This document shows, piece by piece, positions 28,188 to 48,571 of a stretch of DNA of 64,000 nucleotides. The notes below the pieces were generated by a model that did no database searches, was not told the DNA's origin, and saw nothing but the letters and a program-made list of their open reading frames with translations. The position numbers were made by a program, and so were the translations under genes. Numbering within the stretch: the stretch's first letter is position 1; each line of letters opens with the position of its first letter. Source of the DNA: Syntrophobacterales bacterium (GTDB lineage Bacteria > Desulfobacterota > Desulfobaccia > Desulfobaccales > 0-14-0-80-60-11); the NCBI GenBank assembly GCA_020060385.1, contig JAGVAH010000151.1, forward strand, positions 17,474 through 81,473, in the 5' to 3' direction.

Positions 28188-28234
28188 TGGTCGGGACGAG
28201 AGGATTTGAACCTCCGACCCCCTGAACCCCATTC
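28188..28234. repeat. att direct repeat: 47-bp copy of the 3' part of tRNA-Pro(GGG)
   Basis: Exact identity with 48495-48541 (tggtcgggacgagaggatttgaacctccgaccccctgaaccccattc). Sequence diverges immediately outside both copies. Confidence 0.9.
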
Positions 28235-28402
28235 CGTTTCATTGCCTTTTTCTTATTTTTCCCGCCTTGAGAAAAATCTTGACATTTCCTGTAAAATAAG
28301 CAAATTAAAATCATAGATTTTGTGATGGTTTTACCCACTTAGAGATAGATTATCTTTTTATCACCCACACTACACCCACACCGAAAAAGAGGAGCTTTGA
28401 CA

Positions 28403-29587
28403 ATGGCTATTAATATCTTCTGTCCTGCCTGCAAGAGAAATTGCGGCTTGAAGGCTGAGGTTTGTAAGTGCGGGAACATATTTGGACGGAAAAAGCAGTA
28501 CCGGGTGCAGGTGTACCAGAATGGAAGGCCCGTTTATGATAAGGTGTTCCCTAACCTCGCACGGGCCGAAAAAGCTGAGACCATCAAGAAAGCAGAGCTT
28601 GAAACGAACGAGCTTGGCATTAAAGAGAAGCCGAAACCGGCCCCCACCTTGACAGAGGTTTGGCTCAAATACCAGGTTTGGGCCAAGGGGAATAAGAAAA
28701 CCTGGGATGATGACATGCTGAACTACGGGAAGCACCTGGCCCCCCGGTTTGGCAAGAAGCGCCTGGATGCCATCTCTGCCATGGAGGTGAACCGTTTAAA
28801 GCTGGAAATGGCCAAGGGGAAAACCAAAGACGGTGCCCCATACTTGAGCAAACGGGGGAAGCTCTTTTCCGCCAGTACTATCAAGCATCAACTGGTGCTG
28901 CTTCAAAGGCTCTATAAGTTTGCCCAAGGCCCCGACTTCAAGTACAAGGGGAGCACCCCATTCGACCATAAGCAGGTGGTAATGCCCCACCTGGATAACG
29001 AACTGCCAAGATTTCTAGCCGGTGACCAGTTGGCGGCCCTGTGGGGTGCCCTGGATGCTTGGCCGGAGAAGGTGACAGTGGGCTTTATCAAGTTCGCTTT
29101 GCTTACCGGGGTGCGCCGGGGCACATTATTTACTATCCGATGGGCGGACGTAGATTTTGAAAGAAGCATGGTGACCCTGACCATCTCTCACCGGCGGAAG
29201 GGGACCGAAACAGTTGCCAAGAAAGTTTGCCCGGAAGCGCTTGAAGCGCTTAGAGACCTGCCCCGGATTTCGGAGTATGTTTTCCCGGGCAAAGGTGGAG
29301 GGCAAAGGACAGATTTCAAAGGCCCCTGGCGGCGGATTAGGAAGGTGGCGGGGTTGCCAGACAGCATCCGCTTTCACGACCTAAGGCATACCTTTGGGAG
29401 CTATCACGCCATGAACGGGACTACCCCGCAAGTCCTGCAACAGTTGATGAACCATCGGGACTTCAGGACTACCCTGAAGTATGCCCACCTGTCCCCCGGC
29501 GTGGTTAACGAAAGGGCGGCCCGGACTGGCGAGATGTTGGCCCCAAAGAAGACAGAAGGCAAGGTTATCAATTTGACGGAAGATTGA
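28403..29587 (+). CDS. int: tyrosine recombinase / phage-type integrase
   Basis: SD agaggag. Arg-I GVRRGTLFTIRWADVD; HDLRHTFGS; NHRDFRTTLKYAHL (catalytic Tyr). N-terminal Cys-rich segment CPACKRNC..CKCG. Confidence 0.9.
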   Translation: MAINIFCPACKRNCGLKAEVCKCGNIFGRKKQYRVQVYQNGRPVYDKVFPNLARAEKAETIKKAELETNELGIKEKPKPAPTLTEVWLKYQVWAKGNKKTWDDDMLNYGKHLAPRFGKKRLDAISAMEVNRLKLEMAKGKTKDGAPYLSKRGKLFSASTIKHQLVLLQRLYKFAQGPDFKYKGSTPFDHKQVVMPHLDNELPRFLAGDQLAALWGALDAWPEKVTVGFIKFALLTGVRRGTLFTIRWADVDFERSMVTLTISHRRKGTETVAKKVCPEALEALRDLPRISEYVFPGKGGGQRTDFKGPWRRIRKVAGLPDSIRFHDLRHTFGSYHAMNGTTPQVLQQLMNHRDFRTTLKYAHLSPGVVNERAARTGEMLAPKKTEGKVINLTED

Positions 29588-29712
29588 GCGGCTATCAGGC
29601 CCTGATGTTAAACACAAGGATTTCCGGGGATAGGGTCGCTCCCGACAAGACGGTAATCCAGGCCGTCTTCCCCGGATTCACCCCCAGGAGCAACCGCGAC
29701 AGGAGGCGGAAT

Positions 29713-30432
29713 ATGGGTACTGTAGATCTCAAGCCAGAGGCGCTTGAAGCCACTCGGCTTTTCAATCAATACTGTCATCCTGAACACCCTCATTGGAAAA
29801 ACAAGCATAGAAAACAGGCCACCCTTGCCATGCTTGGGTCAGGAATCTTCGGAGATAACGAATTAAAGGGGCACGCTAAACACAAGACTACTTATCGAAT
29901 AGAAGTAAAGAATTTGATTTATGAACTGGTAAATGTTTACTGCGGCCATTCCTATATTCCCTCAACCTCTTATGTGAAAGAGGATATTCTCCGTGAATTT
30001 GGCCATCATTTTGCTTATGTTATTGCAATAGCACGGCTTGCTAGCATCAGAAAAGATGCGGTTGAAACTGTGGTTAAAGATTATGGGGATACTTGGGGTA
30101 AAAAAATATCTAATGCGGCTGATAAGGGTAAAATACCTACCAACTGGCGGAACCTTATAGAGGCAGAGGTGTTCTATGGTCAGCGCTATCAAACCCCCAA
30201 AATGGCTCACGAGTTTGCCGACATTTTTCTCTCATATTGTCCGTCTGCTCCACCTAACAGAATTGCCGGTTGGGTGATTGCCATGTTTAAATCTCTTGGG
30301 CTGGACTCTCCCGGCAAGACTAGTCTAAGCGATTACATTAAAAAGCGACAAAAAGAGGAACAGGAAAATATAATAGCCGCTGGAGAGGATATTAACAACT
30401 ATCAGAAAAAGGGAATTCAGATTCGATACTGA
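29713..30432 (+). CDS. hypothetical protein (AT-rich island gene)
   Basis: Long ORF open from 29584; the ATG at 29713 is preferred. No recognisable motif. Confidence 0.5.
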   Translation: MGTVDLKPEALEATRLFNQYCHPEHPHWKNKHRKQATLAMLGSGIFGDNELKGHAKHKTTYRIEVKNLIYELVNVYCGHSYIPSTSYVKEDILREFGHHFAYVIAIARLASIRKDAVETVVKDYGDTWGKKISNAADKGKIPTNWRNLIEAEVFYGQRYQTPKMAHEFADIFLSYCPSAPPNRIAGWVIAMFKSLGLDSPGKTSLSDYIKKRQKEEQENIIAAGEDINNYQKKGIQIRY

Positions 30433-30680
30433 TTACGTCCCCGCATAATCCCTCCATACCCGTCCGTTTACTTCCCGAAATTGCCCCCAGAAATGGGGGG
30501 TTCTTGTCTTAAAACCAGCAAATAAAACTTACATGCCGGAATATCGGTAAATAATGCCTATTTTGATGTTAATTTCTGGTAAGTAAATTAAGTCTTATTA
30601 CTTTGATTTCTTGTTAATTTTTATTATCATTATTTCACTATTGTGATGGTATGCTAAATTCAACTACGGAGGACGCTTAG

Positions 30681-30881
30681 GTGAGCAAGAATTTTGATTT
30701 AATTCGTGTCTGTAAAATTACACCTGAAGATGGCCTGCCCTACGGAAAGTCCTGTTTTTATAAATGGGCGCACTTAGGCAAACACCGTGAAATTTTTGTC
30801 CGATTCGGCGGCGGCCTCTTTATAGACCGGATCGCGCTAGAGCGGGCAATGGAAGCAGGCCGTTTGCTGGGGGAAAGATAA
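30681..30881 (+). CDS. small DNA-binding protein, excisionase/AlpA-like (MerR-type HTH)
   Basis: GTG start after acggagga. 66 aa with the pattern ..SCFYKWAHLGKHREIFVRFGGGLFIDRIALERAM.. typical of Xis/AlpA-size regulators. Position between int and the replication gene. Confidence 0.55.
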   Translation: MSKNFDLIRVCKITPEDGLPYGKSCFYKWAHLGKHREIFVRFGGGLFIDRIALERAMEAGRLLGER

Positions 30882-31025: not shown

Positions 31026-33707
31026 ATGGATAATCCTATCCTGCAAGCGGCCCTTGATTACCGGGCAGCCGGAATTTCCGTGATTCCTGTTTCTCCGACA
31101 ACCAAGAAGCCGAAGGTCAAATGGTCCGGCTACCAAGACCCCGAGAAGCTCCCGGATGAGGCCGAATTTCGGACGATGTTTAATCGCGCTAATGCCCTGG
31201 CTGCTATTTGTGGCCAGGTTTCCGGGAACCTGGAGGCGCTTGATTTCGACTTTCAGGCCGAACTATTCGAGCCGTGGCGTGAACTTGTGAACCATGAAGC
31301 ACCGGGACTCGTGGAGCGGCTTCCTTTGCAGAAGTCCCAACATGACGGGCGGCACATCGGCTTTCGCTGTCCTGGGATGAAAATTTCTGGCAACAAGAAA
31401 TTGGCGCAAAAGGGGGTTGACGTTACTGACCAAGTCTTGGCCGGGTTGACGGAACTAGGGGTTGACCCGACCGACGCTCCGGCAGTCAAAAAGGCATTGG
31501 TGGGGATGCGGGTTAAGGCTGGCGGAAAAGATGCAGCGCCTATTCCCCACCATGGCGGATTTGTCGCCGTCATCACGCTTGTCGAAACCCGTGGAGAAGG
31601 CGGCTATCTGCTGGTGGACCCTTCTCCCGGCTATAAGTGGCTCCGGGGAAGTCCTAAACGTGATATCCCCGAAGTCACCCCGGAAGAGCGGGAAGTGATG
31701 ATAAGGGCGGCCATGGCTCTCAACGAATGGGTAAACCCCAATGAGGTTGAAGGGCTGGGGTGGAACCTCCCTAAGGAAGCCCGGCGACCCGGCGATGACT
31801 ACAACGGACGCGGCCCTGTGGCGGAAATCTTGGAAAAACACGGCTGGCAGCCGGTGGGAGCCAGAGGGCTTTATCAGCATTACCGGCGTCCTGGCAAGGA
31901 CCGCGGACAGTCTGCCTCACTGATTGATGAGAAATGGTTCCGCGTTTTTAGCTCCAATGCCTATCCGTTTGAAGCCGAAACCACCTATTCTCCGTTCGGT
32001 GTCTATGTCCTCTTGGAACATGATGGAGATTTCGTCAAGGCTGCTGGGGAATTGGCGAAGCAGGGTTATGGTGAGCGTCAGAAGAAGCAAAAAGAGCAGG
32101 CAGAACAAAAACCTTCTCAGCAAGATATATTGCTCACCATTGCGGCGGCGGTTGAGTTGTTTCATACCCCAGACGAAGATGTATATGGAATCATTACCAT
32201 CAATGAACATCGGGAGACCTGGGCAATCCGCTCTAAAGGGTTCCGGCGCTATCTGGCTCATGAATTTTATAAGATAGAGGGCAAAGGCCCCCAGGCTGAG
32301 GCCCTGTCCTCTGCCCTGCAAGTCTTGGAGGCCCGGGCGCAGTTTGACGGCCCGGAGCGCCCGGTGTGGGTGCGCGTGGCAGAGCATGAAGGCGCAATCT
32401 ACCTGGACTTGGGGAATGATTCATGCGAGGCGGTGAAGATAACCCCGAACGACTGGGAATTGGTGTCAGACCCACCGGTATGTTTCCGCCGGACCCGTAG
32501 TATGACGGCCCTCCCCTACCCTGTGAGGGGCGGCAATGTCATGGAACTCAGGCAATTCCTGAACATCGCCTCCGATGCTGATTTCATTCTCCTGGTGGCT
32601 TTTCTCATAAGCGCTCTACGCCCCCGCGGCCCCTACCCGATATCGGTTCTCAATGGTGAGCAGGGGAGCGCCAAATCCACCACGGCCCGGTGCCTGGGTA
32701 ACCTCATAGACCCCAGCACCTCCCCTCTCCGTTCCACTCCCCGTGATGTGCGAGACCTGATGATTGCGGCCACAAATTCGTGGGTTTTGGGCTTCGACAA
32801 CCTCTCCGGCGTGAGTGACTGGCTTTCCGATGCTTTTTGTCGCCTCTCCACTGGCGGCGGATTCAGCACCCGTGAACTCTATACCGATAGGGAGGAAGTC
32901 ATCTTTGAGGCCACCCGTCCCATAATCCTGAACGGGATAGACGCCCTAACCAACCGGCAAGACCTGGCTGACCGGAGCTTGATTTTCAACTTGCCACAGA
33001 TTGAAAAAAAGAAGAGACGGAGCGAAAAGGAATTTTGGAAGGAGTTTGGGGAGGCCCGCCCCCGAATCCTTGGGGCATTGCTGGCCACGGTGAGCATGGC
33101 TCTCCGAAACATTGACACGGTAAAACTCCCGGACCCCCTCAGAATGGCCGACTTTTCCTTATGGGTTGCGGCGGCTGAACCGGCCCTCCCATGGCCCGCC
33201 GGTTCCTTCATGGAAGCCTATGCGCACAACCGGGCTGAAGCCGTGGAGCTATCCCTTGAAGCCGACTGTGTGGCCGTTACCATGCGGGAATTTATGGCCG
33301 ACAAAATTGAGTGGAGCGGCAAACCATCCCAGCTTTATGAAGAGCTTGAAAAGCTGGTGCCAGAGAATACCAAGCGGAGCAAGTTATGGCCCAAGGCGGC
33401 TAACAAGCTATCGAACCGGCTCACGCGGGCGGCTACCTTTCTTCGGGTTATCGGGCTTAATGTTGAAAACGGATGGTCAAAAACGGGGGAGAGGGAGATA
33501 AAGATTAGACGGGTTCCCAAGGGCAGGGAATCTACCGTGGGAACCGTGGGAACCGTGGGAAGTGAGGAAACATGCGGCTTTTCTTCCCACGATACCACAA
33601 ATGAACCGTGGGAAAGGAAAGCCGGTAATCATGCCCCTTTCCGCGATACCCACGATACCCACGATACTTTGCACACTCCGGACGGATTGGAGGAATTGGA
33701 GCTATGA
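31026..33707 (+). CDS. bifunctional primase-polymerase (PrimPol) fused to a P-loop helicase-like domain (P4 alpha / D5-like)
   Basis: N-terminus AALDYRAAGISVIPV..KKPKVKW and an acidic EALDFD motif. Walker A LNGEQGSAKST with a downstream Walker B-like VLGFDN. The C-terminal tail holds peptide repeats TVGTVGTVG / DTHDTHDT. Confidence 0.8.
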   Translation: MDNPILQAALDYRAAGISVIPVSPTTKKPKVKWSGYQDPEKLPDEAEFRTMFNRANALAAICGQVSGNLEALDFDFQAELFEPWRELVNHEAPGLVERLPLQKSQHDGRHIGFRCPGMKISGNKKLAQKGVDVTDQVLAGLTELGVDPTDAPAVKKALVGMRVKAGGKDAAPIPHHGGFVAVITLVETRGEGGYLLVDPSPGYKWLRGSPKRDIPEVTPEEREVMIRAAMALNEWVNPNEVEGLGWNLPKEARRPGDDYNGRGPVAEILEKHGWQPVGARGLYQHYRRPGKDRGQSASLIDEKWFRVFSSNAYPFEAETTYSPFGVYVLLEHDGDFVKAAGELAKQGYGERQKKQKEQAEQKPSQQDILLTIAAAVELFHTPDEDVYGIITINEHRETWAIRSKGFRRYLAHEFYKIEGKGPQAEALSSALQVLEARAQFDGPERPVWVRVAEHEGAIYLDLGNDSCEAVKITPNDWELVSDPPVCFRRTRSMTALPYPVRGGNVMELRQFLNIASDADFILLVAFLISALRPRGPYPISVLNGEQGSAKSTTARCLGNLIDPSTSPLRSTPRDVRDLMIAATNSWVLGFDNLSGVSDWLSDAFCRLSTGGGFSTRELYTDREEVIFEATRPIILNGIDALTNRQDLADRSLIFNLPQIEKKKRRSEKEFWKEFGEARPRILGALLATVSMALRNIDTVKLPDPLRMADFSLWVAAAEPALPWPAGSFMEAYAHNRAEAVELSLEADCVAVTMREFMADKIEWSGKPSQLYEELEKLVPENTKRSKLWPKAANKLSNRLTRAATFLRVIGLNVENGWSKTGEREIKIRRVPKGRESTVGTVGTVGSEETCGFSSHDTTNEPWERKAGNHAPFRDTHDTHDTLHTPDGLEELEL
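33534..33667. repeat. iteron-like cluster (ccgtgggaa direct and inverted copies; cccacgata units)
   Basis: accgtgggaaccgtgggaaccgtgggaag; cttcccacgatacc; aaccgtgggaaagg; gatacccacgatacccacgatac. All lie within 134 bp at the 3' end of the PrimPol-helicase gene. Confidence 0.7.
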
Positions 33708-34012
33708 CCCTCAACCCCGGAATCGAGGCGGTGCGTAAGCTGGCCAATATGGGCTATCGGTTCACGGTGAACGGAGAGAGCATCAAGGGAAAGTACTTCG
33801 GCCCCGACAAGCCGGACCCTGCCGTGGTGTCTCCCCTGCTGCAAGTGGCCCGCCAGCATCGGGGGGATGTGCTGGCCTTTCTTTCTTGCTTCTGCCCCCG
33901 CTGCGGTGGCGTGGCTTCCTGCCCGGACTACGAGGGGAGGCCCGTGTGTTTGGCCTGTGATTGGACGGAACTAAGCCGGCTGTACCCCGGCTTGGCAGAA
34001 GTGAAGAATTGA
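33704..34012 (+). CDS. hypothetical Cys-rich (zinc-ribbon-like) protein
   Basis: ATGA overlap with the upstream stop. CFCPRCGG..CPDYEGRPVCLAC. Confidence 0.55.
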   Translation: MTLNPGIEAVRKLANMGYRFTVNGESIKGKYFGPDKPDPAVVSPLLQVARQHRGDVLAFLSCFCPRCGGVASCPDYEGRPVCLACDWTELSRLYPGLAEVKN

Positions 34013-34039
34013 CCTGGAAACGGTCTCGGTGGAGGTGCC

Positions 34040-34330
34040 ATGAGCAACCGCAGATTTACTCCGAAGCAACTGCGATTTTTAGAACTCTTTTTTTCCGGCT
34101 TCATGATGAAAGACGCTGCCCGCGGTGCGGGCTACCAGGGGCGAAGCGACCAAAGCCTTTGCAATCTGGGGCTGAGGATTCTGCGTAAATTTGTCGGAGA
34201 CCCAAAGACGGTTTTTAGGCGTCGGCCCGGGGCTATTCGTGGAAAGAACATCAGTCAGATGCTCGAAGGCTCCCCAAAAGAGCAACTCGCGGCCCTGAAA
34301 ATCATATCGACATTTGTCGACAGGAGGTGA
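34040..34330 (+). CDS. small HTH protein resembling the N-terminal DNA-binding domain of terminase small subunits
   Basis: FTPKQLRFLELFFSGFMMKDAARGAGY follows the LTPKQ..F....n..AA..AGYS pattern of Terminase_2 N-termini. At 96 aa it is shorter than a full TerS. Confidence 0.45.
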   Translation: MSNRRFTPKQLRFLELFFSGFMMKDAARGAGYQGRSDQSLCNLGLRILRKFVGDPKTVFRRRPGAIRGKNISQMLEGSPKEQLAALKIISTFVDRR

Positions 34331-34641
34331 CCACCGTGGCCCGGGGACTTTCAAGCCTTCAACGTGAAATTTTATGTCTCGCCTCGGAAAAAAGATTTGT
34401 TACATACAAAGAGATGATCGAAGAATTCTGGGGCTTGCAGGACCGGGACGGGAGGTCCAAAGAGCGCACCTATGATGCGGCTCACGCAAGCCTAAGCCGC
34501 TCTGTCAGCCGATTATGGGCACGTAACTTGGTCGATGTCTGGAAAGGTGTAACCGGTTGGGGGACAGGGGTAACTCTGACGGGCGATGGCGAGGAATTTG
34601 TTTTGGCCATTTCCGCGGAAGAGGAATTAATGGATAAGTAG
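34327..34641 (+). CDS. hypothetical protein, possible winged-helix
   Basis: GTGA overlap with the upstream stop. LSSLQREILCLASEKRFVTYKEMIEEF. Confidence 0.45.
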   Translation: MTTVARGLSSLQREILCLASEKRFVTYKEMIEEFWGLQDRDGRSKERTYDAAHASLSRSVSRLWARNLVDVWKGVTGWGTGVTLTGDGEEFVLAISAEEELMDK

Positions 34642-38409: not shown

Positions 38410-38900
38410 TACCGTCCGGACCTTTTAGGGGGCCAGGATTACCCTGCCTAATTTCAAGAAAAATCTGCCCTCTTAAAAGCCCCAAGAGGAAATCCTAAAA
38501 ACTTTCCAACATAGTTTCATATCTGGAATCGTGGTTCTCGGCCTACCAGAGCAGATAATGGCAAGCTATCTATCATAGTTGGCAAAATACCCATGTAGAT
38601 AAAGGTTTGGGAGCAGATTCGATGCTTCCAGAGAATTTAAAAGTTATTTTTCCTCGTCTTACGTCTTATCATTATCTGTTGGTGTTACTCTGGGTTATTT
38701 AGCCTGAAAATCAGATCTGGGCTGACCTTCTCTGGCGTCTAATAACCGCAGAGGGGGGTTTTAGAAAGGTTTTATGTTATCATCCTTCTGAGAGTGGAAA
38801 TCCATCCCCTGGCGAAGTTCGAAAAATATTTCCATACACCTACTTGAGCAGCCATCGTCTGATTCCCGCGGAAAGTGGGCGATTGAGGAGTTTTACAGCT

Positions 38901-40840: not shown

Positions 40841-42088
40841 ATGGAATTTAACACCTTTGATTTTCATCACCAGGTTATGGCGGGCGTTAGCGCGGCGCGC
40901 TATCTAACGCCAACGCCGATACAGGCACAGGCAATCCCGCTGGTCATGCAAGGGCACGATATCGTGGGCCTGGCCCAGACCGGCACCGGCAAGACCGCGG
41001 CCTTTGTGCTGCCAATTCTCCATCGCCTGATGCAAGGCAGGCGCAGGCACGTCAGGGCCCTGATTATTGCCCCCACGCGCGAACTGGCCGAGCAAATCCA
41101 TCAGGCCATTGGCACCCTGGGAAGCCGGACCGGACTCAAGAGCGTTACTATTTATGGAGGAGTTGGCTTCAACCCGCAGGCGGATAAGCTGAAACGCGCC
41201 GCCGCGATTGTCGTTGCCTGTCCCGGCCGCCTGCTTGACCATATCAGTCGTGGCACCATCGACCTCTCACATCTGGAAGTGCTCGTACTGGACGAGTCAG
41301 ACCGGATGTTAGACATGGGATTTCTGCCCGATATCAGAAAGATCATCGAGCACTTGCCGGCAAAACGCCAGACGCTTTTGTTCTCAGCAACCATGCCGGA
41401 TGATATTCTGCATCTATCCCGGGCAGTCCTGAAAGCACCGGTGACGGTGCAGGTTAATGCTACTGGACCGGCAAGCACTGTCTCTCATAAACTTTATCCG
41501 GTCGCGCAGCACCGTAAGACCCCGCTGCTCCTCGAACTGTTGCGCCATACCGCTACTGAGTCGGTTCTGATCTTTACGCGCACCAAACATCGGGCCAAGC
41601 GTCTGGGGGAACAGTTGGGGAAGGCCGGCTATCGAGCAGCATCACTGCAGGGAAATCTCTCCCAGGCGCAGCGTCAGGCGGTGATGAACGGGTTCCGCAA
41701 CGGCAACTTCCAGATACTTGTGGCCACTGACGTGGCCTCCCGGGGGATCGACGTGACCCAGATTTCCCACGTAATCAATTACGATATGCCGGATACTACT
41801 GATGCCTATACCCACCGAATCGGACGTACCGGCCGCAATGCCAAGAGCGGTGATGCCTTCACCTTTATTACTTCTGAAGATGAGGATATGGTGCGCAGCA
41901 TCGAGCGGGTCCTCCGCACCAAGGTAAAGCGTTGTATACTGAATGGTTTTGATTATAAAATGGCGGCACCGCCAGGCGATGCCGAGTTCGCACGGCCGCG
42001 ACGTAAGCCGCAGCGGCGCTTGGAACAGAAAAACCCCAAATCATTCAAAGCTTATGGTGAAGGCGCGCATTCTTTTGGACACAGATAG
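40841..42088 (+). CDS. DEAD-box ATP-dependent RNA helicase (RhlE-like), with DESD in place of DEAD
   Basis: Q-motif; AQTGTGKT; PTRELA; LDESDRMLDMGF; SAT; HRIGRTGR; basic C-terminal tail. Confidence 0.9.
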   Translation: MEFNTFDFHHQVMAGVSAARYLTPTPIQAQAIPLVMQGHDIVGLAQTGTGKTAAFVLPILHRLMQGRRRHVRALIIAPTRELAEQIHQAIGTLGSRTGLKSVTIYGGVGFNPQADKLKRAAAIVVACPGRLLDHISRGTIDLSHLEVLVLDESDRMLDMGFLPDIRKIIEHLPAKRQTLLFSATMPDDILHLSRAVLKAPVTVQVNATGPASTVSHKLYPVAQHRKTPLLLELLRHTATESVLIFTRTKHRAKRLGEQLGKAGYRAASLQGNLSQAQRQAVMNGFRNGNFQILVATDVASRGIDVTQISHVINYDMPDTTDAYTHRIGRTGRNAKSGDAFTFITSEDEDMVRSIERVLRTKVKRCILNGFDYKMAAPPGDAEFARPRRKPQRRLEQKNPKSFKAYGEGAHSFGHR

Positions 42089-42467: not shown

Positions 42468-42941
42468 CTAGGCAAGACGCAATTGCGCCAGCGAGGCCCT
42501 GGCGCTGCCACCGCTGATATCCGGCACAATCTTTAATTCGAGCACGGTTACCCTGTCGAGATCGACCTCGTAGTTTTCGACCTCCCGGGTTTCCCCAGGC
42601 GGACTGAAGTTATATTGTTGGCGCAGAATCTCCCGGTAGGTCTGACCGCCGTCTGGTGACCATCGCAAAACGAACTCTTGGGTGCGCTCCTGCTCGCCTT
42701 CATGGAACATCAGGTGGACCCGCCTAAGGCTCAGCGGCTCATCAAACAGGAGGCGAATGGTCTGCTCCCCTGGCTCCGCCGCCCGCCAACCCTGGCCCGT
42801 ACCCTGAATCAGCGCCGATTCAATCGGATAGTCGGCATCTTCGGACGTGATTTCGGCTTGGGCCAAGAGGTCAAGGTCCAGCCAACCGGGCTCGGGGGCT
42901 TCGACCTCACGAGGCCCATGACCGATAATGCGCTTACGCAT
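42468..42941 (-). CDS. hypothetical protein, possibly a discoidin/F5-8 type C-like beta-sandwich
   Basis: 157-aa ORF and the only minus-strand gene in the island. The fold call is weak pattern recognition only. Confidence 0.4.
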   Translation of the reverse strand: MRKRIIGHGPREVEAPEPGWLDLDLLAQAEITSEDADYPIESALIQGTGQGWRAAEPGEQTIRLLFDEPLSLRRVHLMFHEGEQERTQEFVLRWSPDGGQTYREILRQQYNFSPPGETREVENYEVDLDRVTVLELKIVPDISGGSARASLAQLRLA

Positions 42942-43114
42942 AGAGTCTTCCTCCTTTTCCCCATTCTAGTTTAACTTATATATTAAGTGGATTCTATTTT
43001 TTTCCCCTAAGTCACTTTGACGGATGCCTTAAAAAATAACCTCTATTATTTATAGTATTATTTATAGGGGTTAATTGGAGTCCCGGGATTTTGCTGCCAA
43101 TTATTTTAATTGGC

Positions 43115-43142
43115 TTGACATCAAATAATTTTTTTGTAAAAT
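43115..43142 (+). promoter_or_regulatory. sigma70-like promoter candidate for csp
   Basis: TTGACA-N16-TAAAAT, about 160 nt upstream of the csp ATG. Confidence 0.5.
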
Positions 43143-43196
43143 ACATCCAAGTTTAGCATGTCAGAATGAAATCAGGGCCACAAGTCCTGGACAAAA

Positions 43197-43234
43197 ATCG
43201 GACGGGGGTGCTAATTCCCGGCCGATTTTTTTTT
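43197..43234 (+). promoter_or_regulatory. terminator-like hairpin + T9 inside the csp 5' leader (possible attenuator/thermosensor)
   Basis: atcggacggg / cccggccgat (9 of 10 bp paired) followed by nine T residues, between the promoter candidate and the csp start. Confidence 0.4.
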
Positions 43235-43301
43235 GCCTGACTGCTGTGCGCCCTGCTTTTTGGGCAGGAATATCTTTGCAGTATTTGTTGGAGGTTTCAC
43301 C

Positions 43302-43505
43302 ATGAAGGAAACTGGTACGGTTAAATGGTTTAATGACTCGAAAGGCTTTGGTTTCATTACCCGGGAAAACGGTCCGGATGTGTTTGTACATCACAGCGCC
43401 ATTCTGGGCGAAGGCTTCCACACCCTGTCAGAAGAACAGGCAGTAGAGTTCGATGTAACCCAGGGTCCCAAGGGTCCCCAGGCCCAAAACGTCGTAAAAC
43501 TTTAG
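43302..43505 (+). CDS. cold-shock protein, CspA family
   Basis: [15 protein letters not shown] (RNP1) and DVFVHHSAI (RNP2); 67 aa. Confidence 0.9.
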
Positions 43506-43586
43506 GCCAAACAGCCTAAAGAGCGGACCTCCGTCGGTCTCTGGACCCTCGGAGTTCCGCCACCTTGATTATTAAAGAGGTAGAAC

Positions 43587-43733
43587 TTGGCACGTAACCG
43601 TTATAGCTGGCAAAAGCGGGTAAAAGAGTTGGCCCGAAAAGAAAAAAATGACGAAAAAATGAAACGTCGCCAGGGAAAAACCACGCCACCGCCGACGGAG
43701 GAAATGCCGAGGGAGGTTGAAGAAGGAACTTAA
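43587..43733 (+). CDS. possible 48-aa Lys/Arg-rich small protein (TTG start)
   Basis: SD aagagg lies 8 nt before the TTG. Translation LARNRYSWQKRVKELARKEKNDEKMKRRQGKTTPPPTEEMPREVEEGT. Absent from the supplied ORF track, presumably below its size cut-off. Confidence 0.3.
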   Translation: MARNRYSWQKRVKELARKEKNDEKMKRRQGKTTPPPTEEMPREVEEGT

Positions 43734-43776
43734 AGGTACTGACGGGCAGGTCCGGCAAGACCAACAGGGAGAAGAT

Positions 43777-44082
43777 ATGAGTATCAAATTGTACGTGGGC
43801 AATCTATCCTACGAGACTACCGAAGAACAGCTGAACTCTTTGTTCTCCGAGGCCGGCGCCGTGGCCTCGGCCAAGATCATCACCGACCGGCAGACGGGTC
43901 AACCCCGGGGTTTCGGTTTTGTGGAAATGGAGAGCAAAATGGACGGCCAAAAGGCCATTTCCATGCTCAACGGCCGTAATATAGATGGCCGCGCCCTGGC
44001 AGTCAATGAAGCCAAACCGCAGCAAAAAGGCGGATTTGGGGGCGGCCGTGGCGGCCGCGGCGGCCGCGGCGGTTACCGCTAG
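43777..44082 (+). CDS. RRM-type RNA-binding protein with C-terminal RGG tail
   Basis: RNP2 KLYVGNL, RNP1 RGFGFVEM, tail GGGRGGRGGRGGYR. Confidence 0.9.
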   Translation: MSIKLYVGNLSYETTEEQLNSLFSEAGAVASAKIITDRQTGQPRGFGFVEMESKMDGQKAISMLNGRNIDGRALAVNEAKPQQKGGFGGGRGGRGGRGGYR

Positions 44083-44175: not shown

Positions 44176-44243
44176 CAGAAACTGAATCAGCGGTGTTATT
44201 TCCGCGATTCCTTAAGCGTCAGCAGATGCGAAGGATTTTCTTA

Positions 44244-45782
44244 ATGAAGATCTTTTTGGTTTATGTGCGAGATGAAAACTTTTGCCGCTTACTGCCCAAA
44301 GAACTGGATAGATCCCCCTCTGACAATAGCCGCATCAAAGTAATGGGCCTTCCGCCCCTGGGAATCCAGACCCTGGCGCCGGTCCTGCGCCGGCATGGAC
44401 ACCGGGTGCGGCTGTTTGATACCTGTCACCCACTGATGCAGGCGGAACATATCGCTCAGGCAGTGGAAGAAGAATGGCCCGACGTCATTGCCCTCTCCTG
44501 TCTCTCCACGACCACCTACCCGGCGGTCAAAGACCTGGCCCGGCGATTAAAGTTGGGACCGCGGCAAATCCCCATCATCTTAGGCGGGCCATTTGCCACC
44601 ATGAATGCAGACCGCATCCTGGCAGACTGCCCTGACATCGACTGCGTGGGGGTGGGGGAGGGCGAAGAGCTGTTGCCGGACTATTTGAGCAACCTCGCCG
44701 ATCCCAGCTCCGTAGCCGGTCTGGTCTGGCGCCACGCAGGGAAGATTGTGGAGAACGTCTTACGACCGCTTATTCAGGATCTGGATCAGTTTCCCTACCC
44801 CGACCGCACCAGCCTGCCCATCGACTACATCGAGTCCTTGCCCCTGGACGTCCCTGCGGTCCTCTCCCTAGATAAATTTTGCACCATGCAGACTTCCCGA
44901 GGCTGCCCTTATTCCTGCATATATTGCGATATTCCCTCCCTGGCCCGGGGCAAATGGCGCTACCGCTCCGCGGAGCATGTCTTGGGGGAAATGCAGCAAT
45001 TGAATGATCTGGGCTATCGCTCCATTTACCTGACCGATGATCATTTCCTCCTTAACCGCAAGCGCATCAGCGAAGTTTGCCGCGGGATTATTGACCGCGG
45101 GCTGCAGTTCCATTGGGGTTGCGAAGGCAGGGTGGATGCAGTCGCGGTGGATCAGTTGCCTATCATGAGTAAAGCCAACTGTAATTTCCTGGCTTTTGGC
45201 GTGGAGGCGGGGACGCAAAAGGTGCTTGACCGGCTTAACAAGAAACAGACTCTGAAGCAGGTGGAACACGCGGTCAGTGAAGCGAAGCGGCATGGCATCG
45301 CCAGGGTGCACGGATTTTTTGTGATTAGCTCTCCCGACGAAACCGAAGAGGATATCCTGGCCAGCTTCCGTTTTGCCGCGCGGCTGAAGCTGGACACCTT
45401 CGGTTTCGGACGCTTATGCGTTTACCGGGGCACCCCTTTATGGCAGGAGTATATCGATCGGGGGATCATTGACGACACACTGGATTGGCACAAATGGTTC
45501 AAGTGCTCGGACGTTGACCCCACCGTATTACCGAGCGCCAGGGTGAACCGTCTGCGCATGAAAGGCTACGCCTTGTTGTTTGCCCGCCGGATTTTCAGGC
45601 GCCCCTTCCGCACCTACAAGCTCCTGCGCATGTTCGGCCGTCATATGAAGAAATCAGATCTCCTAAAATTGCTCTGGAGCCCTTTCCAACGGCGGACTCT
45701 GAGCCGGAAGCCCGATCTCCCGGCCAGGATGATGGATCTGGGACTCACAGAGCCCGAGAGGGGCACAGTCTCCATCACCTAA
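44244..45782 (+). CDS. B12-binding (class B) radical SAM enzyme, second copy
   Basis: N-terminal B12-binding-like region (PDVIALSCLSTT..IILGGPFAT). Cluster motif SRGCPYSCIYCD. The ORF is open from 44193. Confidence 0.8.
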   Translation: MKIFLVYVRDENFCRLLPKELDRSPSDNSRIKVMGLPPLGIQTLAPVLRRHGHRVRLFDTCHPLMQAEHIAQAVEEEWPDVIALSCLSTTTYPAVKDLARRLKLGPRQIPIILGGPFATMNADRILADCPDIDCVGVGEGEELLPDYLSNLADPSSVAGLVWRHAGKIVENVLRPLIQDLDQFPYPDRTSLPIDYIESLPLDVPAVLSLDKFCTMQTSRGCPYSCIYCDIPSLARGKWRYRSAEHVLGEMQQLNDLGYRSIYLTDDHFLLNRKRISEVCRGIIDRGLQFHWGCEGRVDAVAVDQLPIMSKANCNFLAFGVEAGTQKVLDRLNKKQTLKQVEHAVSEAKRHGIARVHGFFVISSPDETEEDILASFRFAARLKLDTFGFGRLCVYRGTPLWQEYIDRGIIDDTLDWHKWFKCSDVDPTVLPSARVNRLRMKGYALLFARRIFRRPFRTYKLLRMFGRHMKKSDLLKLLWSPFQRRTLSRKPDLPARMMDLGLTEPERGTVSIT

Positions 45783-45861
45783 ACTGAACTGCTCTGTGTC
45801 GAGGTGGCTCAGGAGAAGACGCAGACCAATGCCTCTAGATAAGACCGACAAGGAGAAGGCG

Positions 45862-46140
45862 ATGAGTAAAAGATTAGCCGTGGGCAACCTGCCCCACCAA
45901 ATGACCGGAGAAGAGTTGCAGACCCTTTTTTCTGAAGCCGGCTTGGTGGCCTCCTCCAAGATCATCACTTATCTGCACAACGGGCAGACCCGCGGTTTCG
46001 GCTTTGTGGAGATGCATACCCCAAAGGAAAGCCAGAGAGCCATTGCCCTGCTCAATGGCCGGCAGGTTGAGGGGCGCCCCCTGGTAGTCAAAGCGGATAG
46101 AGTGGGGTCAAAAAACCCTTTTAGCCGCCGCCGCAAATGA
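45862..46140 (+). CDS. RRM-type RNA-binding protein, second copy
   Basis: RNP2 RLAVGNL, RNP1 RGFGFVEM; short basic tail. Confidence 0.85.
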   Translation: MSKRLAVGNLPHQMTGEELQTLFSEAGLVASSKIITYLHNGQTRGFGFVEMHTPKESQRAIALLNGRQVEGRPLVVKADRVGSKNPFSRRRK

Positions 46141-46290: not shown

Positions 46291-46479
46291 ATGCTTAGCG
46301 TGAAAGGAAATAATATTATGGTAAGATTTATTCCGCAGTTTGAACTAATGAAATATTTTTATTACCGGTTGGCTATCATTCAGGTGAGAGCTGGCGAGAC
46401 CAATGATGAAGCCTGGCATCGCCACCTCATGGAGACCCCTGATGATATTCATGCGACCATCAGGGTTTTTAACTCTTAA
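46291..46479 (+). CDS. hypothetical small protein
   Basis: ORF only; the start is uncertain (alternative ATG at 46318). Confidence 0.3.
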   Translation: MLSVKGNNIMVRFIPQFELMKYFYYRLAIIQVRAGETNDEAWHRHLMETPDDIHATIRVFNS

Positions 46480-46516
46480 GTTAGCGAGGAGAACAAGGGT
46501 CATCGAGGAGACCTAT

Positions 46517-46858
46517 ATGAAACAAAAAAACGTTAAGGCGATCTTTTCGGAATTTGACGCTTATTGCGAGGCACTGGATAGAAACGGCTGTATCAGCTAT
46601 CCCGTCACCATCACCTGGACCATGACCGGGCAACATTACGGCCGGCCCGTGGTGGTGATTCTGGGTGAGGCCCGGGAGACCAGTGACCTGCCTCCCGGTG
46701 AATTGCAGGTGCCAGCGGAGATTTTGGAAGAAGTGAGGCAGGTTGGATATGGCGCCCAACCTCTCAGCCTGGAGGAAATCAAGGAGTATTGGAGAGAGGC
46801 TAGCCGGTTGATTGTCAAAAACCATTGGCACCCAGAGGCCCGGCTGGTGCAATATTAG
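46517..46858 (+). CDS. hypothetical protein
   Basis: 113-aa ORF from an internal ATG preceded by ggagac; no motif recognised. Confidence 0.4.
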   Translation: MKQKNVKAIFSEFDAYCEALDRNGCISYPVTITWTMTGQHYGRPVVVILGEARETSDLPPGELQVPAEILEEVRQVGYGAQPLSLEEIKEYWREASRLIVKNHWHPEARLVQY

Positions 46859-47138
46859 ATAAAATCGACCTCTTTTCCCCGAATAGCGTATACCTAATTA
46901 GGTGAGAGGCAGGAAAATAAGATAAAAGTGGCAAACAATATTATTTATCCGAAGTTTTTCCCAAAGCATCCCAGAGAAATAGCTCATCTTTTCTGTCGAT
47001 AACTGCTATATCTCAGCTACTTAAATAATCAATAAGATATTTGGATATGATCATTGTATTGACCACTGACCCTACCTCCCTTCTTCTCCTCCCATCCCCA
47101 TAGATTCATCGCCAGGTCGAAGGAGAGTACCCGCCCTA

Positions 47139-47159
47139 GAAAAGCGCTAGCGCTTTTTT
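47139..47159. terminator. palindromic terminator-like element
   Basis: gaaaagcgct|agcgctttttt, a perfect palindrome with A/T runs on both sides. Confidence 0.35.
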
Positions 47160-48494
47160 AGAGGGTGTCTGAAGAGGGACCATCGTCTGTAAGGGAAAGC
47201 ATGGGGAAGCATGTTTTCTATTTTTTCCCCGGCAAATGTCAGGAGTTACTGTGTATCGGGGGCAGGCCCTACCCCCTTTAGGGAAGAGGGATCGGAACCT
47301 TTGCCCAAAGGCAAGCTTCCCCCCGGCTCCCGGCGCCCCTGCCCGGTGCCGAAGCTCCCACCCTTGCCAGCGCATGAATCTCACTCTCTCTGAAATTTTT
47401 CCCTGTCTTAGAGCGGGAGTTTTTTCGAAATCCGCCCATTCCCGCCTCCACCGCAAACAGAGGGTCAGCCGGGGGCGGAAAACTGCAAAAAACTTCCCAG
47501 CCGCGTGGGAGAAAAACTTAGAAAAGATGCCAACCTATGCTTACCTATGGGCTCCTCGATTGCGAGGGCAAATAGACCCATAACTCCTAACTCAAGTTGA
47601 GAGTTTTCAGAAAAAAAAGCAGGGGACATCCACCCCCATGCCAGGGAAGATTTTGCCTCGCAAATTTTGAGGTCCAGGTCCCGTTGACGGGGGGGGGGAG
47701 CTGGTCACCGGCACTGCTCACCCAGAAAAGATTTTTGAGAATCTGGTCCGCCAGCATCGTACTGACAGGGGGGGATAGGAGTCCCGTCCCGGGGTTTAGG
47801 TTCCCGGGCCAGAAAGTTCTCAGAGCGCGGCGGCCGGGGGCCGGTGGACATCCGCCACCAGTCCCGGGCCAGCTGTCCGGGACCCACGAACTGCTGGTAG
47901 CCTACCGGTAGGCGGGGAGAGACCACCGGCCAGATCACGGCCACACCACTCCCGGGCCGGATAACCAGTGTCAGAAATCCTGGATAGGCGGGTTATCTGT
48001 TGCAGAAATTCATCTTGTAGTGACGTGGGCGGCAACCTCATTCCAGGCGATTGGAAGGGCGGCAGGAATGCGTCTTGAAGGCTGTTGTAGAGGAAGGTGT
48101 CACCTTACCCCTACCTTGCTGCGACAAGGGGCCTGGGAGCCGTTTCTACCAAGGATTCTGACGCCTGGCGCTGGGCTGGCGATGGAGTACAGGGCCGGTC
48201 TGGGGAAAGGCCCCCTTTGGCTGCGCGTGTTACTCGCTGCCCTCCACCCCGAGATGGTTTTCTCTCCCATTGCTACGCCCGGCTCTTGGCGATAGACCGG
48301 TTCTGGATTGCCAGAGCCCCGTTTCTCTGCCCCGCCAGAGTGGGGTACAAGGTGGGCAGGAATCAAAAAATTAAAATGCCTGATGGGGTACTCCTGAAAA
48401 TCATACCCACACTACACCCACACCGGCCAAAAAAATTAAAAAAGGCAAGTTCAGCAAAAATGCCGTAAATTGCCTTATTTTTTAGTTTATTTAA

Positions 48495-48571
48495 TGGTCG
48501 GGACGAGAGGATTTGAACCTCCGACCCCCTGAACCCCATTCAGGTGCGCTCCCAGTCTGCGCCACGTCCCG
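48495..48571 (-). tRNA. tRNA-Pro(GGG), CCA encoded; integration target of the island
   Basis: Minus strand reads cgggacg-tg-gcgc-agactggga-gcgc-a-cctga-atGGGgt-tcagg-gggtc-ggagg-ttcaaat-cctct-cgtcccg-a-cca. Confidence 0.9.

Follow-up and report, generated by a model that had tools for sequence, protein, structure and literature searches.

The interval at 28188-48541 of the window (the whole stretch of DNA analysed, 64,000 nucleotides) is bounded by two copies of one 47-mer, TGGTCGGGACGAGAGGATTTGAACCTCCGACCCCCTGAACCCCATTC, which lie at 28188-28234 and 48495-48541 as a direct repeat and are identical at 47 of 47 positions. They are the only two copies in the window: no third is present at <=3 or at <=14 mismatches, chance predicting 0 matches. 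Counted between the starts of the two repeats, the island measures 20,307 bp. The right copy makes up the 3' portion of a tRNA-Pro(GGG) gene that lies intact on the minus strand (48495-48571), is called by ARAGORN and by Rfam (tRNA, 56.9 bits) and aligns to the tRNA gene of the relative described below; attR thus lies inside a regenerated, intact tRNA. The left copy, attL, is a displaced 3' fragment of the same gene. Sequence similarity is lost immediately outside both copies, and in all these respects the boundaries are as the first-pass annotation had drawn them: a perfect 47-bp repeat, its right copy within an intact minus-strand tRNA-Pro(GGG), and divergence directly beyond each copy. A putative chromosomal promoter of the tRNA lies outside the island, recognised by a consensus match only (48582-48610, minus strand; TTGACA, 17 nt, TG-TATGAT; 11/12 consensus matches), while the 3' 47 nt of the working tRNA and its terminator come from the element itself. 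The Islander criteria and the anticodon-centred attP class provide the published framework for such islands in tRNA genes (PMC4383910).

The first gene inside the left repeat (28403-29587, plus strand) encodes a 394-aa tyrosine integrase whose N-terminus carries a Cys4 zinc ribbon (Pfam Phage_integrase PF00589, 3.6e-23; phrog_1 integrase, 2e-48). All of its catalytic residues, R...HxxR...H...Y, align to XerA, and its catalytic set is complete. The zinc ribbon recurs in 108 of 120 integrase homologues. The distance from the left repeat to the int start, given earlier as about 170 bp, measures 168 bp, and int indeed lies at the island end opposite the intact tRNA. This placement had been regarded as unusual; it is in fact the rule in every related element examined. 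Across other metagenomes, about a dozen independent elements have a related int some 170-200 bp from the same tRNA fragment and in the same orientation, and in some of them it adjoins the equivalent fragment of another tRNA. The identical 47-mer is found beside int in L079 (the closest integrase, 80% identity), L069, L087, L092 and L094, with one mismatch in L068 and in L090, and in part at the end of contig L080, whereas in L070 and L081-83 int adjoins the corresponding 47-mer from a tRNA-Ala(GGC)-like gene. A complete island of 5,738 bp (L087-89) carries the identical 47-bp repeat, and its intact tRNA is at the far end from int. The 47-mer is not a dispersed tRNA-derived repeat; in other genomes it adjoins a related integrase.

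Between attL and the integrase gene lie the P' arm and int leader (28235-28402, plus strand), homologous to the corresponding arms of L079, L081, L087, L090, L092 and L094. Two conserved boxes are discernible here, one containing TTGACA (28262-28284) and unique in the window, the other CCCACTTAGAGATA (28334-28347). A perfect 21-mer with a tandem pair of CCCACAC motifs occurs at only two places, 28363-28383 in this arm and 48405-48425 in the P arm at the opposite end of the island, with 0 expected by chance. The P arm (48405-48494), homologous to those of L079 and L087, continues from the 21-mer through an A-run to a hairpin (48442-48476); hairpin and U-run fold at -19.6 kcal/mol (z -2.9) and form the terminator of the regenerated minus-strand tRNA. 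A tandem repeat particular to each element lies immediately upstream of int, and integrases with a different N-terminus are accompanied by a different repeat class. In the independent island L087, a motif of its own, GTGCACGT, is present as a pair spaced by 11 nt in the P' arm and again in the P arm, at matching relative positions. Because motifs occupy the same two places there, the evidence points to the CCCACAC 21-mers, which are new here, as candidate arm-type integrase sites.

The search proposed earlier for an empty site, that is, a tRNA-Pro followed directly by a DUF1622-like gene, was successful in one relative (n=1), the Thermodesulfobacteriota MAG058 (L004). Here the DUF1622 gene, a single intact tRNA-Pro that it directly adjoins, and the right flank are all present, and exactly 20,307 bp are missing. 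Window positions 27644-28234 align to 11213-11804 of L004 and positions 48495-48690 to 11758-11954, such that the two window flanks overlap by exactly 47 bp, in agreement with the base-level alignment. The flanking DNA is about 84-90% identical at the nucleotide level, and the homology to the left of attL includes the old terminator hairpin of the tRNA (28138-28167). This shows that the element is an insertion relative to L004, in which the tRNA-Pro(GGG) site is unoccupied; gain in the window and a precise excision that removed it from L004 are formally equivalent. The whole interval is lacking there, including the restriction-modification (R-M) gene and the RNA-chaperone/radical-SAM cluster; the first-pass annotation had regarded everything between the repeats as potentially mobile cargo. 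Relatives carrying the same 20 kb without the repeats were not found.

Downstream of int comes a set of backbone genes that recurs in part among the sister elements. It begins with an int-alpA RNA motif (Rfam RF02996; 29623-29689, plus strand; 37.1 bits, gathering score 35.8), after which come a GGAGG and the start ATG of the downstream gene. All three helices of the motif are kept, with some compensatory changes, and it is found at the matching place in L092 (41.1 bits), L090 (40.5) and L081 (34.9). Its position upstream of a conserved 239-aa gene is a new observation. This gene, orf239 (29713-30432, plus strand; called mechanically as a 282-aa ORF starting at 29584), is of unknown function: it is 63.5% identical to the gene at the same position in L092/L093, has 20 homologues, all hypothetical, and a GC3 of 0.39, and its AF2 model (pLDDT 84, all-alpha) has no fold match in PDB or BFVD. 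The next gene, orf66 (30681-30881, plus strand), is a candidate for a small DNA-binding protein of the AlpA/excisionase type. Its homologues, 48-54% identical, occupy the same position in L081, L087, L090 and L092 and another one in L079; the window copy by itself has no family match, and the assignment derives from weak, transitive profile matches, the L079 homologue matching phrog_66 'excisionase and transcriptional regulator' (E 0.006).

The largest backbone gene (31026-33707, plus strand) encodes a replication protein of 893 aa with an N-terminal Prim-Pol (AEP primase-polymerase) domain (Pfam Prim-Pol, 4e-12; phrog_19930 DNA polymerase/primase, 2e-50) and a C-terminal P-loop-like motif, GEQGSAKST, read from the translation. 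Its relatives are distant only, with 32-35% identity over the C-terminal part. The 3' end of this gene harbours an iteron-like cluster (33534-33667) with four direct copies of ACCGTGGGA and three inverted CCCACGATAC; TRF reports perfect 9-bp arrays, and CGTGGG/CCCACG occurs 7 times in 170 nt against 0.14 expected. We propose this cluster, likewise new here, as a candidate replication origin. Three small ORFs on the plus strand complete the backbone (33704-34641): orf102 (33704-34012), whose N-terminus has 67% identity in L081; orf96 (34040-34330), with a weak match to the Terminase_2 N-terminus (E 0.039, below cut-off); and orf104 (34327-34641), which shares 40-47% identity with the gene immediately preceding the R-M slot of L090 and L092.

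All but this backbone is cargo, consisting of a Type IIG R-M enzyme, a set of RNA-chaperone/cold-shock type and two B12-radical-SAM enzymes. The R-M enzyme (35029-38115, plus strand; 1028 aa) fuses nuclease, methyltransferase and specificity domain and matches PADLOC REase_MTase_IIG over its full length (6e-179), with Pfam matches to Type_ISP_C (2e-60), N6_Mtase and Eco57I. The gene sits in an exchangeable defence slot, a new observation: at this place, downstream of orf104, the sister elements carry different R-M or defence genes. Next to it, orf89 (38140-38409, plus strand) weakly matches the C-terminus of a Type IIG enzyme, and L092/L093 conserve its last 30 aa immediately to the right of their R-M slot; orf89 is a probable scar of cargo exchange.

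The remainder of the cargo begins with a B12-binding radical SAM enzyme with DUF4070 (38844-40478, plus strand; Pfam B12-binding, Radical_SAM and DUF4070), which an independent gene call gives as 493 aa and whose NCBIfam matches are all below the cut-offs. Its paralogue (44193-45782, plus strand; Pfam B12-binding 2e-24, Radical_SAM 9e-23) shares with it a common cluster-motif repeat, D4. Between the two are a CshA/RhlE-like DEAD-box RNA helicase (40841-42088, plus strand; Pfam DEAD 8e-52, Helicase_C 4e-33; NCBIfam CshA 1.6e-125, below the equivalog cut-off), the minus-strand orf157 of unknown function (42468-42941), and a CspA-family cold-shock protein of 67 aa (43302-43505, plus strand; Pfam CSD 5.6e-29), which accounts for a sub-threshold Rfam cspA match. 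For orf157 a galactose-binding-like match falls below cut-off (Pfam F5_F8_type_C_2, E 0.005); its GC3 of 0.68 looks coding, and the gene is also called in L096 and L097. Two RRM-type RNA-binding proteins flank the second radical SAM gene, one at 43717-44082 (likely start 43777; Pfam RRM_1 4e-24; NCBIfam Rbp_regulator 107 bits, cut-off 100) and one at 45796-46140 (Pfam RRM_1 2.5e-17), both on the plus strand and with 71% nucleotide identity between their genes (repeat D1). Further right, orf113 (46517-46858, plus strand; orf151 with a later start), of unknown function, looks coding by composition and is 113 aa in L096, with no family match in the Pfam and PHROG searches. The last ~1.5 kb before the P arm (46859-48404) holds no convincing gene: its ORFs have flat GC1, GC2 and GC3, no genes are called there in L096, and there is no similarity to the sister elements.

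Composition sets the interval apart from its surroundings. GC amounts to 53.4% in the island versus 58.9% and 59.0% in the flanks; GC3 is 0.39-0.70 in island genes (0.76-0.78 in two small ORFs) versus 0.75-0.83 in flank genes, and the tetranucleotide deviation is elevated, with z of 2 to 6.7, across nearly the whole island. GC, GC3 and k-mer content thus mark the interval as foreign, which supports the earlier reading. The left third had been singled out as AT-rich; it is atypical, but the atypia spans nearly the whole island. The region of the R-M gene is the exception, with a host-like k-mer composition, and the host-like k-mers of this Type IIG gene count against reading the interval as one foreign element.

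Different histories or modes of transfer could be considered for this interval. A phage satellite of PICI or P4 type, unlikely but worth weighing, would be induced to excise by a helper phage via the AlpA-like regulator, replicated as a circle by Prim-Pol and packaged into helper capsids, with the R-M slot as a defence hotspot. The island's int, primase and AlpA-like gene together correspond to the minimal PICI/P4 core, a combination that by itself scores only as 'Type C PICI' (PMC10085698). The int-alpA motif, the absence of structural genes, the variation of the defence slot among sister elements and the weak match of orf96 to the N-terminus of small terminase would all fit, as would the phage-like contigs L080, L067 and L068, which target this tRNA-Pro site too and whose integrases are 76% identical over the catalytic region. 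However, Pfam and PHROG show no hijacking or packaging gene, with neither terS, ppi/rpp, sid/psu/delta nor capsid genes among their matches; no helper phage is known, orf66 is only weakly assigned to AlpA, and the Prim-Pol gene has no relative in viral contigs. At 20.3 kb the island also exceeds typical PICI or P4 elements, the P4-like median being about 10 kb (PMC10085698).

Rather doubtful, too, is that the island is a fixed remnant of a past integration that has lost excision and transfer and is kept for useful cargo. Contigs of the two source metagenomes all show the occupied site, an exact attB junction was not found in assembled metagenome contigs, transfer machinery is missing, and some relatives have decayed, L087 having a truncated core and an int-less segment. 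Decay is difficult to reconcile with an attL that is perfect at 47/47 despite no selection as a tRNA (L068 and L090 have one mismatch each, L087 a truncation), or with the intact state of the integrase, the 21-mers in both arms, the RNA motif, the replication gene and the iterons. We consider improbable an integrative mobilisable element that excises and replicates itself and relies for its transfer on a conjugative element in the same cell, acting on an oriT that escaped recognition: relaxase, coupling protein and secretion genes are absent from the island by Pfam, and no oriT was identified in it, even though the 1.5-kb non-coding stretch close to one end could hold one. The L079 element does carry a TrwC relaxase and a type IV coupling protein together with its orf66 homologue, but this relaxase module has nothing else in common with the island of the window. 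Least of all do we favour a composite of >=2 independent insertions (for example, a small element with int and replication genes joined by a cargo block of separate origin or by a tandem neighbour with a lost junction), the right half of which would not move with the left: although tandem or decayed arrays at the tRNA-Pro site in L087 and L079, the mere 5.7 kb of a complete sister island, the scar-like orf89 and the uneven k-mer signal could be so read, the window has neither an internal att copy at <=14 mismatches nor a second P' box, the far-right P arm bears the perfect 21-mer of the int-proximal arm and so ties both ends to one integrase, the whole interval is missing from L004, and GC3 is below the host level throughout.

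Based on the above data, we propose that a circular form with an attP composed of P arm, 47-bp core, P' arm and int would have recombined with the chromosomal tRNA gene, strand exchange occurring at or near the anticodon loop. The catalytic domains of the integrase would bind the 47-bp core, and its zinc-ribbon domain the tandem CCCACAC pairs of both arms; the P' pair lies ~20 bp upstream of the int start, so that int could be autoregulated. Excision, the present-day occurrence of which we infer, would require the integrase and a directionality factor, most likely orf66 (AlpA/Xis-like), after which the Prim-Pol/P-loop protein may copy the circle, starting at the iteron cluster that its own gene contains at the 3' end. 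The int-alpA motif, as the 5' leader of orf239, probably controls the expression of this gene. Capsid, packaging, relaxase and secretion genes were not found in the island by Pfam and PHROG, and transfer would therefore proceed through a helper (phage or conjugative element) or by passive routes.

The integrative-island interpretation of the first-pass annotation is thus supported, and every proposed check that was run came out in its favour. The interval 28188-48541 is very probably a single site-specific integrative element, one of a recurring family of small, self-replicating integrative islands. Its host is an uncultured relative of sulfate-reducers. The island is a genuine mobile element, fairly ordinary in kind, and its family is found in Thermodesulfobacteriota and other 'deltaproteobacterial' lineages.

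The 47-bp sequence at 28188-28234 is identical to a second copy at 48495-48541 on the same strand, and searches of the 64-kb window that tolerated as many as 3 or 14 mismatches gave no third copy (shuffled sequences give an expectation of 0). The right-hand copy belongs to a minus-strand tRNA-Pro(GGG) gene called at 48495-48571 by ARAGORN, with which Rfam concurs (56.9 bits). The 3' end of this tRNA faces the island, and its cognate 3' fragment lies 20.3 kb further on, downstream and in the same orientation. Alignment shows that the two copies part company immediately beyond the 47 bp. The perfect direct repeat made of the 3' part of tRNA-Pro(GGG), with divergence right outside both copies, was the central claim of the first-pass annotation and is confirmed by sequence identity, uniqueness and both tRNA predictions.

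The same annotation called for an empty site in a relative, which we found by scanning one genome per species with the YHS-domain oxidoreductase of the left flank. The best match, at 90% amino-acid identity, is contig JBFLXM010000049.1 of Thermodesulfobacteriota MAG058 (L004). Window segments 20173-26668 and 27644-28234 align with this contig as far as its position 11804, and segments 48495-48690 and 48992-52645 align with it starting at 11758; the left and right flank alignments thus share exactly 47 bp. L004 carries one intact tRNA-Pro(GGG), at 11758-11834, preceded by the DUF1622 gene and followed by the right flank, and in a three-way alignment it matches the flank of the left attachment site (attL, 28188-28234) leftward and that of the right site (attR, core 48495-48541) rightward. 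Because the flank alignments overlap by 47 bp, 20,307 bp constitute an insertion relative to L004; equivalently, the alignment could be read as a precise loss of these 20,307 bp from L004. The exact attB junction has no match in assembled metagenome contigs. Searches of sequencing runs gave nothing for the left junction and, for the right one, only runs that have words of the tRNA in common with it, at 4-5%. We conclude that this is a true genomic island, integrated in a tRNA gene and belonging to a recurrent family; its ends are defined precisely, and it can probably still excise.

We rejected the idea that the inverted repeats I1 and I2, outside the island, delimit a larger unit: both belong to a short dispersed repeat that occurs a third time at 63684, and the DUF1622 gene and the tRNA are syntenic in L004. 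The dispersed repeat itself, GCTTCGYTCAGAATGACA, lies at 27431-27448 (+), 48778-48795 (-) and 63684-63701 (-), that is, 3 matches against 0.05 expected; with I1 and I2 it forms inverted copies just outside both island ends, and among the loci examined it is absent except from the window's own contigs. The adjoining left flank, 26669-27643, comprises about 975 bp of non-coding sequence between the oxidoreductase and DUF1622 genes, as against 144 bp in L004. It contains long G/C-run hairpins at 27138-27351, and both JGI contigs of the source samples begin inside it, at 27195. Its 141-aa ORF (orf141) is flat in codon-position GC and was discarded as a gene on composition and independent gene calls; mir-like Rfam matches at 27198-27290 were likewise dismissed, as they reflect the G/C-run hairpin.

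The island is also compositionally distinct, with a GC content of 53.4% vs 58.9% and 59.0% in the flanks. Third-position GC of its genes is 0.39-0.70 (0.76-0.78 for two small ORFs) vs 0.75-0.83 in flank genes, and tetranucleotide deviation from the flank profile reaches z 2-6.7 over the island, with the exception of the restriction-modification (R-M) gene. The AT-richness originally noticed in the left third does reflect foreign composition, but it is not limited to that third: the entire interval looks foreign by GC, third-position GC and tetranucleotides. A second low-GC stretch (0.47-0.52; tetranucleotide z up to 3.0), at window 14000-18000 and well outside the island, may be another foreign segment.

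The sublocation classes of attP reportedly follow Williams 2002. With an identity block running from the anticodon to CCA, the attachment site corresponds to the anticodon-centred attP class, which is the commonest among Islander-type islands (2083 of 3919; PMC4383910). The island has the properties by which such islands are recognised (Hudson, Lau & Williams 2015, PMC4383910): a regenerated tRNA gene with its displaced cognate 3' fragment downstream in the same orientation, a tyrosine integrase inside the interval, and an empty site in a relative, here L004. Nothing essential differs from that description; the integrase gene sits at the island end away from the intact tRNA, and its product has an N-terminal Cys4 zinc ribbon instead of a recognised arm-binding domain.

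All island genes lie on the plus strand unless stated otherwise. The integrase gene (28403-29587; PF00589, 3.6e-23) encodes the R, HxxR, H and Y residues when aligned to XerA, and its zinc ribbon is common to 108 of 120 homologues. Hundreds of relatives occur in Syntrophobacterales, Desulfobaccales and other 'deltaproteobacterial' MAGs, and we examined the gene contexts of about a dozen elements of this clade. In all of them int is preceded, at a distance of about 170-200 bp, by a tRNA 3' fragment, with the same strand arrangement as in the window. The Pro 47-mer is identical in L079 (integrase 80% identical), L069 (51%), L087-89 (50%), L092 (52%) and L094, and has one mismatch in L068 and L090; the L080 copy is interrupted by the contig end, and L070 and L081-83 carry a positionally equivalent 47-mer from a tRNA-Ala(GGC)-like gene. 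The L087-89 locus is a complete island of 5,738 bp with the same perfect 47-bp repeat and an intact tRNA-Pro distal to int. The placement of int far from the intact tRNA, at first regarded as less common, is therefore the normal layout in this clade. Its members are of several types: an element with relaxase and coupling protein (L079), phage-like contigs with head genes (L080, L067, L068), and small replicons built like the window island (L081, L087, L090, L092, L094).

Two of these loci hold further attachment-like segments. Two more P-arm-like segments, each followed by a core copy, lie at 330-437 and 9707-9838 of L087; the first extra core is shortened to 35 nt, the middle P arm has the L090-type repeat GTGCACAC, and the segments enclose an ABC-transporter/POR operon without an integrase. 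The whole resembles a tandem array at tRNA-Pro that has decayed. Around 9700-10000 of L079, P arm, core and P' arm follow one another in attP order immediately before int, and to their left lie a B12-radical-SAM gene and methyltransferases; the arrangement represents a tandem neighbour or else a circular form that was assembled as such.

The arms of the window island contain a second perfect repeat, the 21-mer ACCCACACTACACCCACACCG, in which CCCACAC occurs twice at 11-nt spacing. One copy (28363-28383) lies in the int-side arm, P', 20 nt before the int start, and the other (48405-48425) in the P arm (48405-48494), 70 nt before the attR core; the window has no further copy, with 0 expected by chance. 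If the element were circular, the core would have one copy on either side, in the P and the P' arm. Homology of the P' arm extends throughout the family, but the tandem repeat right before int differs from element to element: GCACAG twice in L079, TGCACAGG twice in L081 and three times in L092, GTGCACAC twice in L090, CACGCACAGG twice in L094 and GTGCACGT twice in L087. The deciding comparison is with L087, the only other complete island: two copies of its motif, spaced 11 nt apart, are also present in its P arm (15444, 15455), and their placement with respect to hairpin and core matches that in the window. The integrases of L067, L068, L080, L069 and L070 have a different N-terminus, and their elements a different repeat class (GGGGGTAA or GTGGGAC). 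Since the repeats recur in both arms of the window island and L087 and their class changes with the integrase N-terminus, we infer that they are candidate arm-type integrase sites, read by the N-terminal domain. The locus L098 was unsuitable as a second test of the arm repeats, as its integrase and target are different. A hairpin with a U-run behind it on the tRNA strand (-19.6 kcal/mol, z -2.9) separates the P-arm repeats from the core; the working tRNA therefore owes both its 3' 47 nt and its terminator to the element. The tRNA promoter is predicted to be chromosomal, not island-borne, and the displaced tRNA fragment retains the old chromosomal terminator.

Downstream of int, an int-alpA RNA motif (Rfam RF02996) at 29623-29689 scores 37.1 bits against a gathering threshold of 35.8, and stands directly ahead of the ribosome-binding site of orf239 (29713-30432), whose start is set by a conserved GGAGG and ATG; the mechanically called ORF, of 282 aa, overlaps the motif. 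The motif lies directly upstream of an orf239-family gene in L081 (34.9 bits), L090 (40.5) and L092 (41.1) as well, between int and an AlpA-like gene, and its three-helix structure is kept across the four elements with some compensatory changes. In L090 an extra gene separates the motif from int, and the motif therefore behaves as a leader of orf239. Described int-alpA RNAs come mainly from Proteobacteria. The orf239 product is 63.5% identical in L092, and the left end of L094 shows about 70% nucleotide identity throughout. The predicted model of the orf239 product is confident and all-alpha (pLDDT 84), and comparison with PDB and BFVD yielded no related fold (best E 0.35-1.7, TM at most 0.22).

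The next gene, orf66 (30681-30881), has same-position homologues in L081, L087, L090 and L092 (48-54% identical) and a further homologue in L079 (49%). The window copy matches nothing in Pfam, PHROGs or NCBIfam, found only itself in a word-index search, and gave nothing in a profile search against PDB; its single-sequence structure model (pLDDT 54) was not used. The L079 homologue matches phrog_66 at E 0.006, which would tie orf66 weakly to AlpA/excisionase families. A replication protein of 893 aa (31026-33707) follows, with an N-terminal Prim-Pol domain and a P-loop-like GEQGSAKST motif. It has no relative among viral contigs, no sequence relative in PDB, and three distant relatives in metagenome contigs. 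The 3' end of its gene holds an iteron cluster (33534-33667) with four direct copies of ACCGTGGGA and three inverted copies of CCCACGATAC, or 7 core matches in 170 nt against 0.14 expected. The replication protein varies within the family, being of Prim-Pol type in the window, D5_N/DUF5906 in L092, DnaB in L090, AAA_25 in L087, and unannotated in L081 and L094. Three small genes, orf102, orf96 and orf104, come next (33704-34641); the orf102 N-terminus is 67% identical in L081, and orf104 is 40-47% identical in L090 and L092.

Further observations concern three loci. In L098, 8488-13239 carries the same backbone of orf239, small ORFs and replication gene with a different integrase, beside a tRNA-Arg(CCG)-like sequence; backbone and integration module can therefore be swapped. 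At 6257-13409 of L086, what appears to be another small island includes a distant relative of the C-terminal part of the replication protein; a 407-aa ORF marks one end and tRNA-Thr(CGT) the other. The L081 locus has a c-di-GMP-I-GGC riboswitch (17935-18014; 75 bits) close to its end, past a GGDEF gene and transposase fragments.

Downstream of the orf104 homologue each element carries a different defence system. In the window this is a full-length Type IIG R-M gene (35029-38115), for which the PADLOC REase_MTase_IIG profile covers 21-1050 of 1086 at 6e-179; together with the Pfam matches N6_Mtase, Eco57I and Type_ISP_C, this predicts that nuclease, gamma-class N6-adenine methyltransferase and specificity domains are fused in one polypeptide. 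In L090 the slot holds a 27% identical IIG/ISP-like enzyme, and in L092 a BsuBI/PstI nuclease together with an Eco57I-type methylase; further systems in the family are a TIR protein, Type I R-M and Fic (L094) and R-M with GmrSD (L098). The 89-aa orf89 (38140-38409) weakly matches the Type IIG C-terminus in its front part. A counterpart of its final 30 aa is retained on the right side of the R-M slot in L092/L093, and the ORF is probably a scar left by an exchange of defence genes or cargo.

The right-hand cargo comprises a B12-radical SAM/DUF4070 enzyme (38844-40478), a DEAD-box RNA helicase (40841-42088), a 67-aa CspA-family protein (43302-43505), an RRM protein (43717-44082), a second B12-radical SAM enzyme (44193-45782) and a second RRM protein (45796-46140), and is shared with none of the sister elements examined. 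Also in this region are orf157, on the minus strand (42468-42941), and a 113-aa ORF (46517-46858). The CspA gene is smaller than the first ORF cut-off and was noticed through a weak Rfam cspA match; as an RNA element this sub-threshold cspA thermoregulator match was rejected because it overlies the CspA coding sequence. Long untranslated stretches lie on either side of the gene (42942-43301 and 43506-43776). The last 1.5 kb or so before the P arm (46859-48404) has no coding signature, gene calls or similarity to the sister elements; it includes a palindrome at 47129-47168 and could be the place of an oriT, of a packaging site or of an RNA gene. ORFs at 47236-48468 were rejected as genes by composition and independent gene calls.

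Two kinds of known element resemble the island in its contents. The integrative mobilisable or conjugative relatives are represented by L079, which has the closely related integrase, the same tRNA-Pro 47-mer, a homologous P' arm and an orf66 homologue. However, L079 encodes a TrwC relaxase and a T4 coupling protein, whereas Pfam scans of the island proteins found no relaxase, coupling-protein or secretion genes. The PICI/P4-like satellites (de Sousa et al. 2023, PMC10085698) share the order of int, small candidate AlpA-like gene, large primase-type gene, small ORFs and variable defence slot, the lack of structural genes, the tRNA integration and an int-alpA RNA motif. Of the SatelliteFinder core (PMC10085698), the island has the integrase and, as primase/replicase, the Prim-Pol fusion with its P-loop-like motif; a core of int, AlpA-like gene and primase scores as 'Type C PICI', a class that the authors deem ambiguous (PMC10085698). 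In contrast to these satellites, recognised packaging or capsid-redirecting genes (terS, ppi/rpp, capsid morphogenesis, the P4-like psu/delta/sid operon) are absent from Pfam and PHROG scans of the island proteins. The same scans gave none of the capsid, portal, terminase and tail genes that would mark a prophage and that L080 carries. PHROGs gave no matches to the small ORFs, and an N-terminal Terminase_2 match in orf96 is sub-threshold (E 0.039; 15 bits vs a cut-off of 26). The Prim-Pol (AEP) fusion also differs from the alpha-type primase of P4, an extra conserved 239-aa gene separates int from the AlpA-like gene, the island measures 20.3 kb, and its host is uncultured and of a phylum outside those with described satellites, with no helper known.

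We advance as a speculative and rather unlikely reading that the island and L081, L087, L090, L092, L094 and L098 are satellites that depend on a helper and form a lineage not yet described, with hosts among Thermodesulfobacteriota and related anaerobes, and that the window member makes a temperature-acclimation trait mobile. If true, the lineage would be defined by int, the int-alpA leader, an orf239 without fold relative and an AlpA-like gene, followed by an interchangeable replication protein and a hot-swappable defence slot, and its tRNA-Pro attachment site would be common to temperate phages of the same integrase clade. As the cargo comprises a complete cold-shock RNA-chaperone set (CspA, DEAD-box, two RRM) together with two B12-radical-SAM enzymes, temperature acclimation would on this reading be the mobile trait.

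Independently of that reading, the island boundaries are base-exact, and the early view of the R-M gene and the RNA-chaperone/radical-SAM cluster as potentially mobile cargo holds within them: these 20.3 kb are accessory and potentially mobile, not core. No general principle is altered, and the family-level features (arm repeats that co-vary with the integrase, an RNA leader together with a gene lacking any detectable fold relative, an exchangeable defence slot and a mobile RNA-chaperone set) are of moderate specialist interest. Lastly, the comparison delimits a family of small integrative replicons from anaerobic lineages that have received little study. Its members have matched arm repeats that vary with the integrase, share a conserved RNA leader and differ in the defence system in their slot, and they offer ready material for the study of integrase arm recognition and defence-gene exchange beyond model bacteria.
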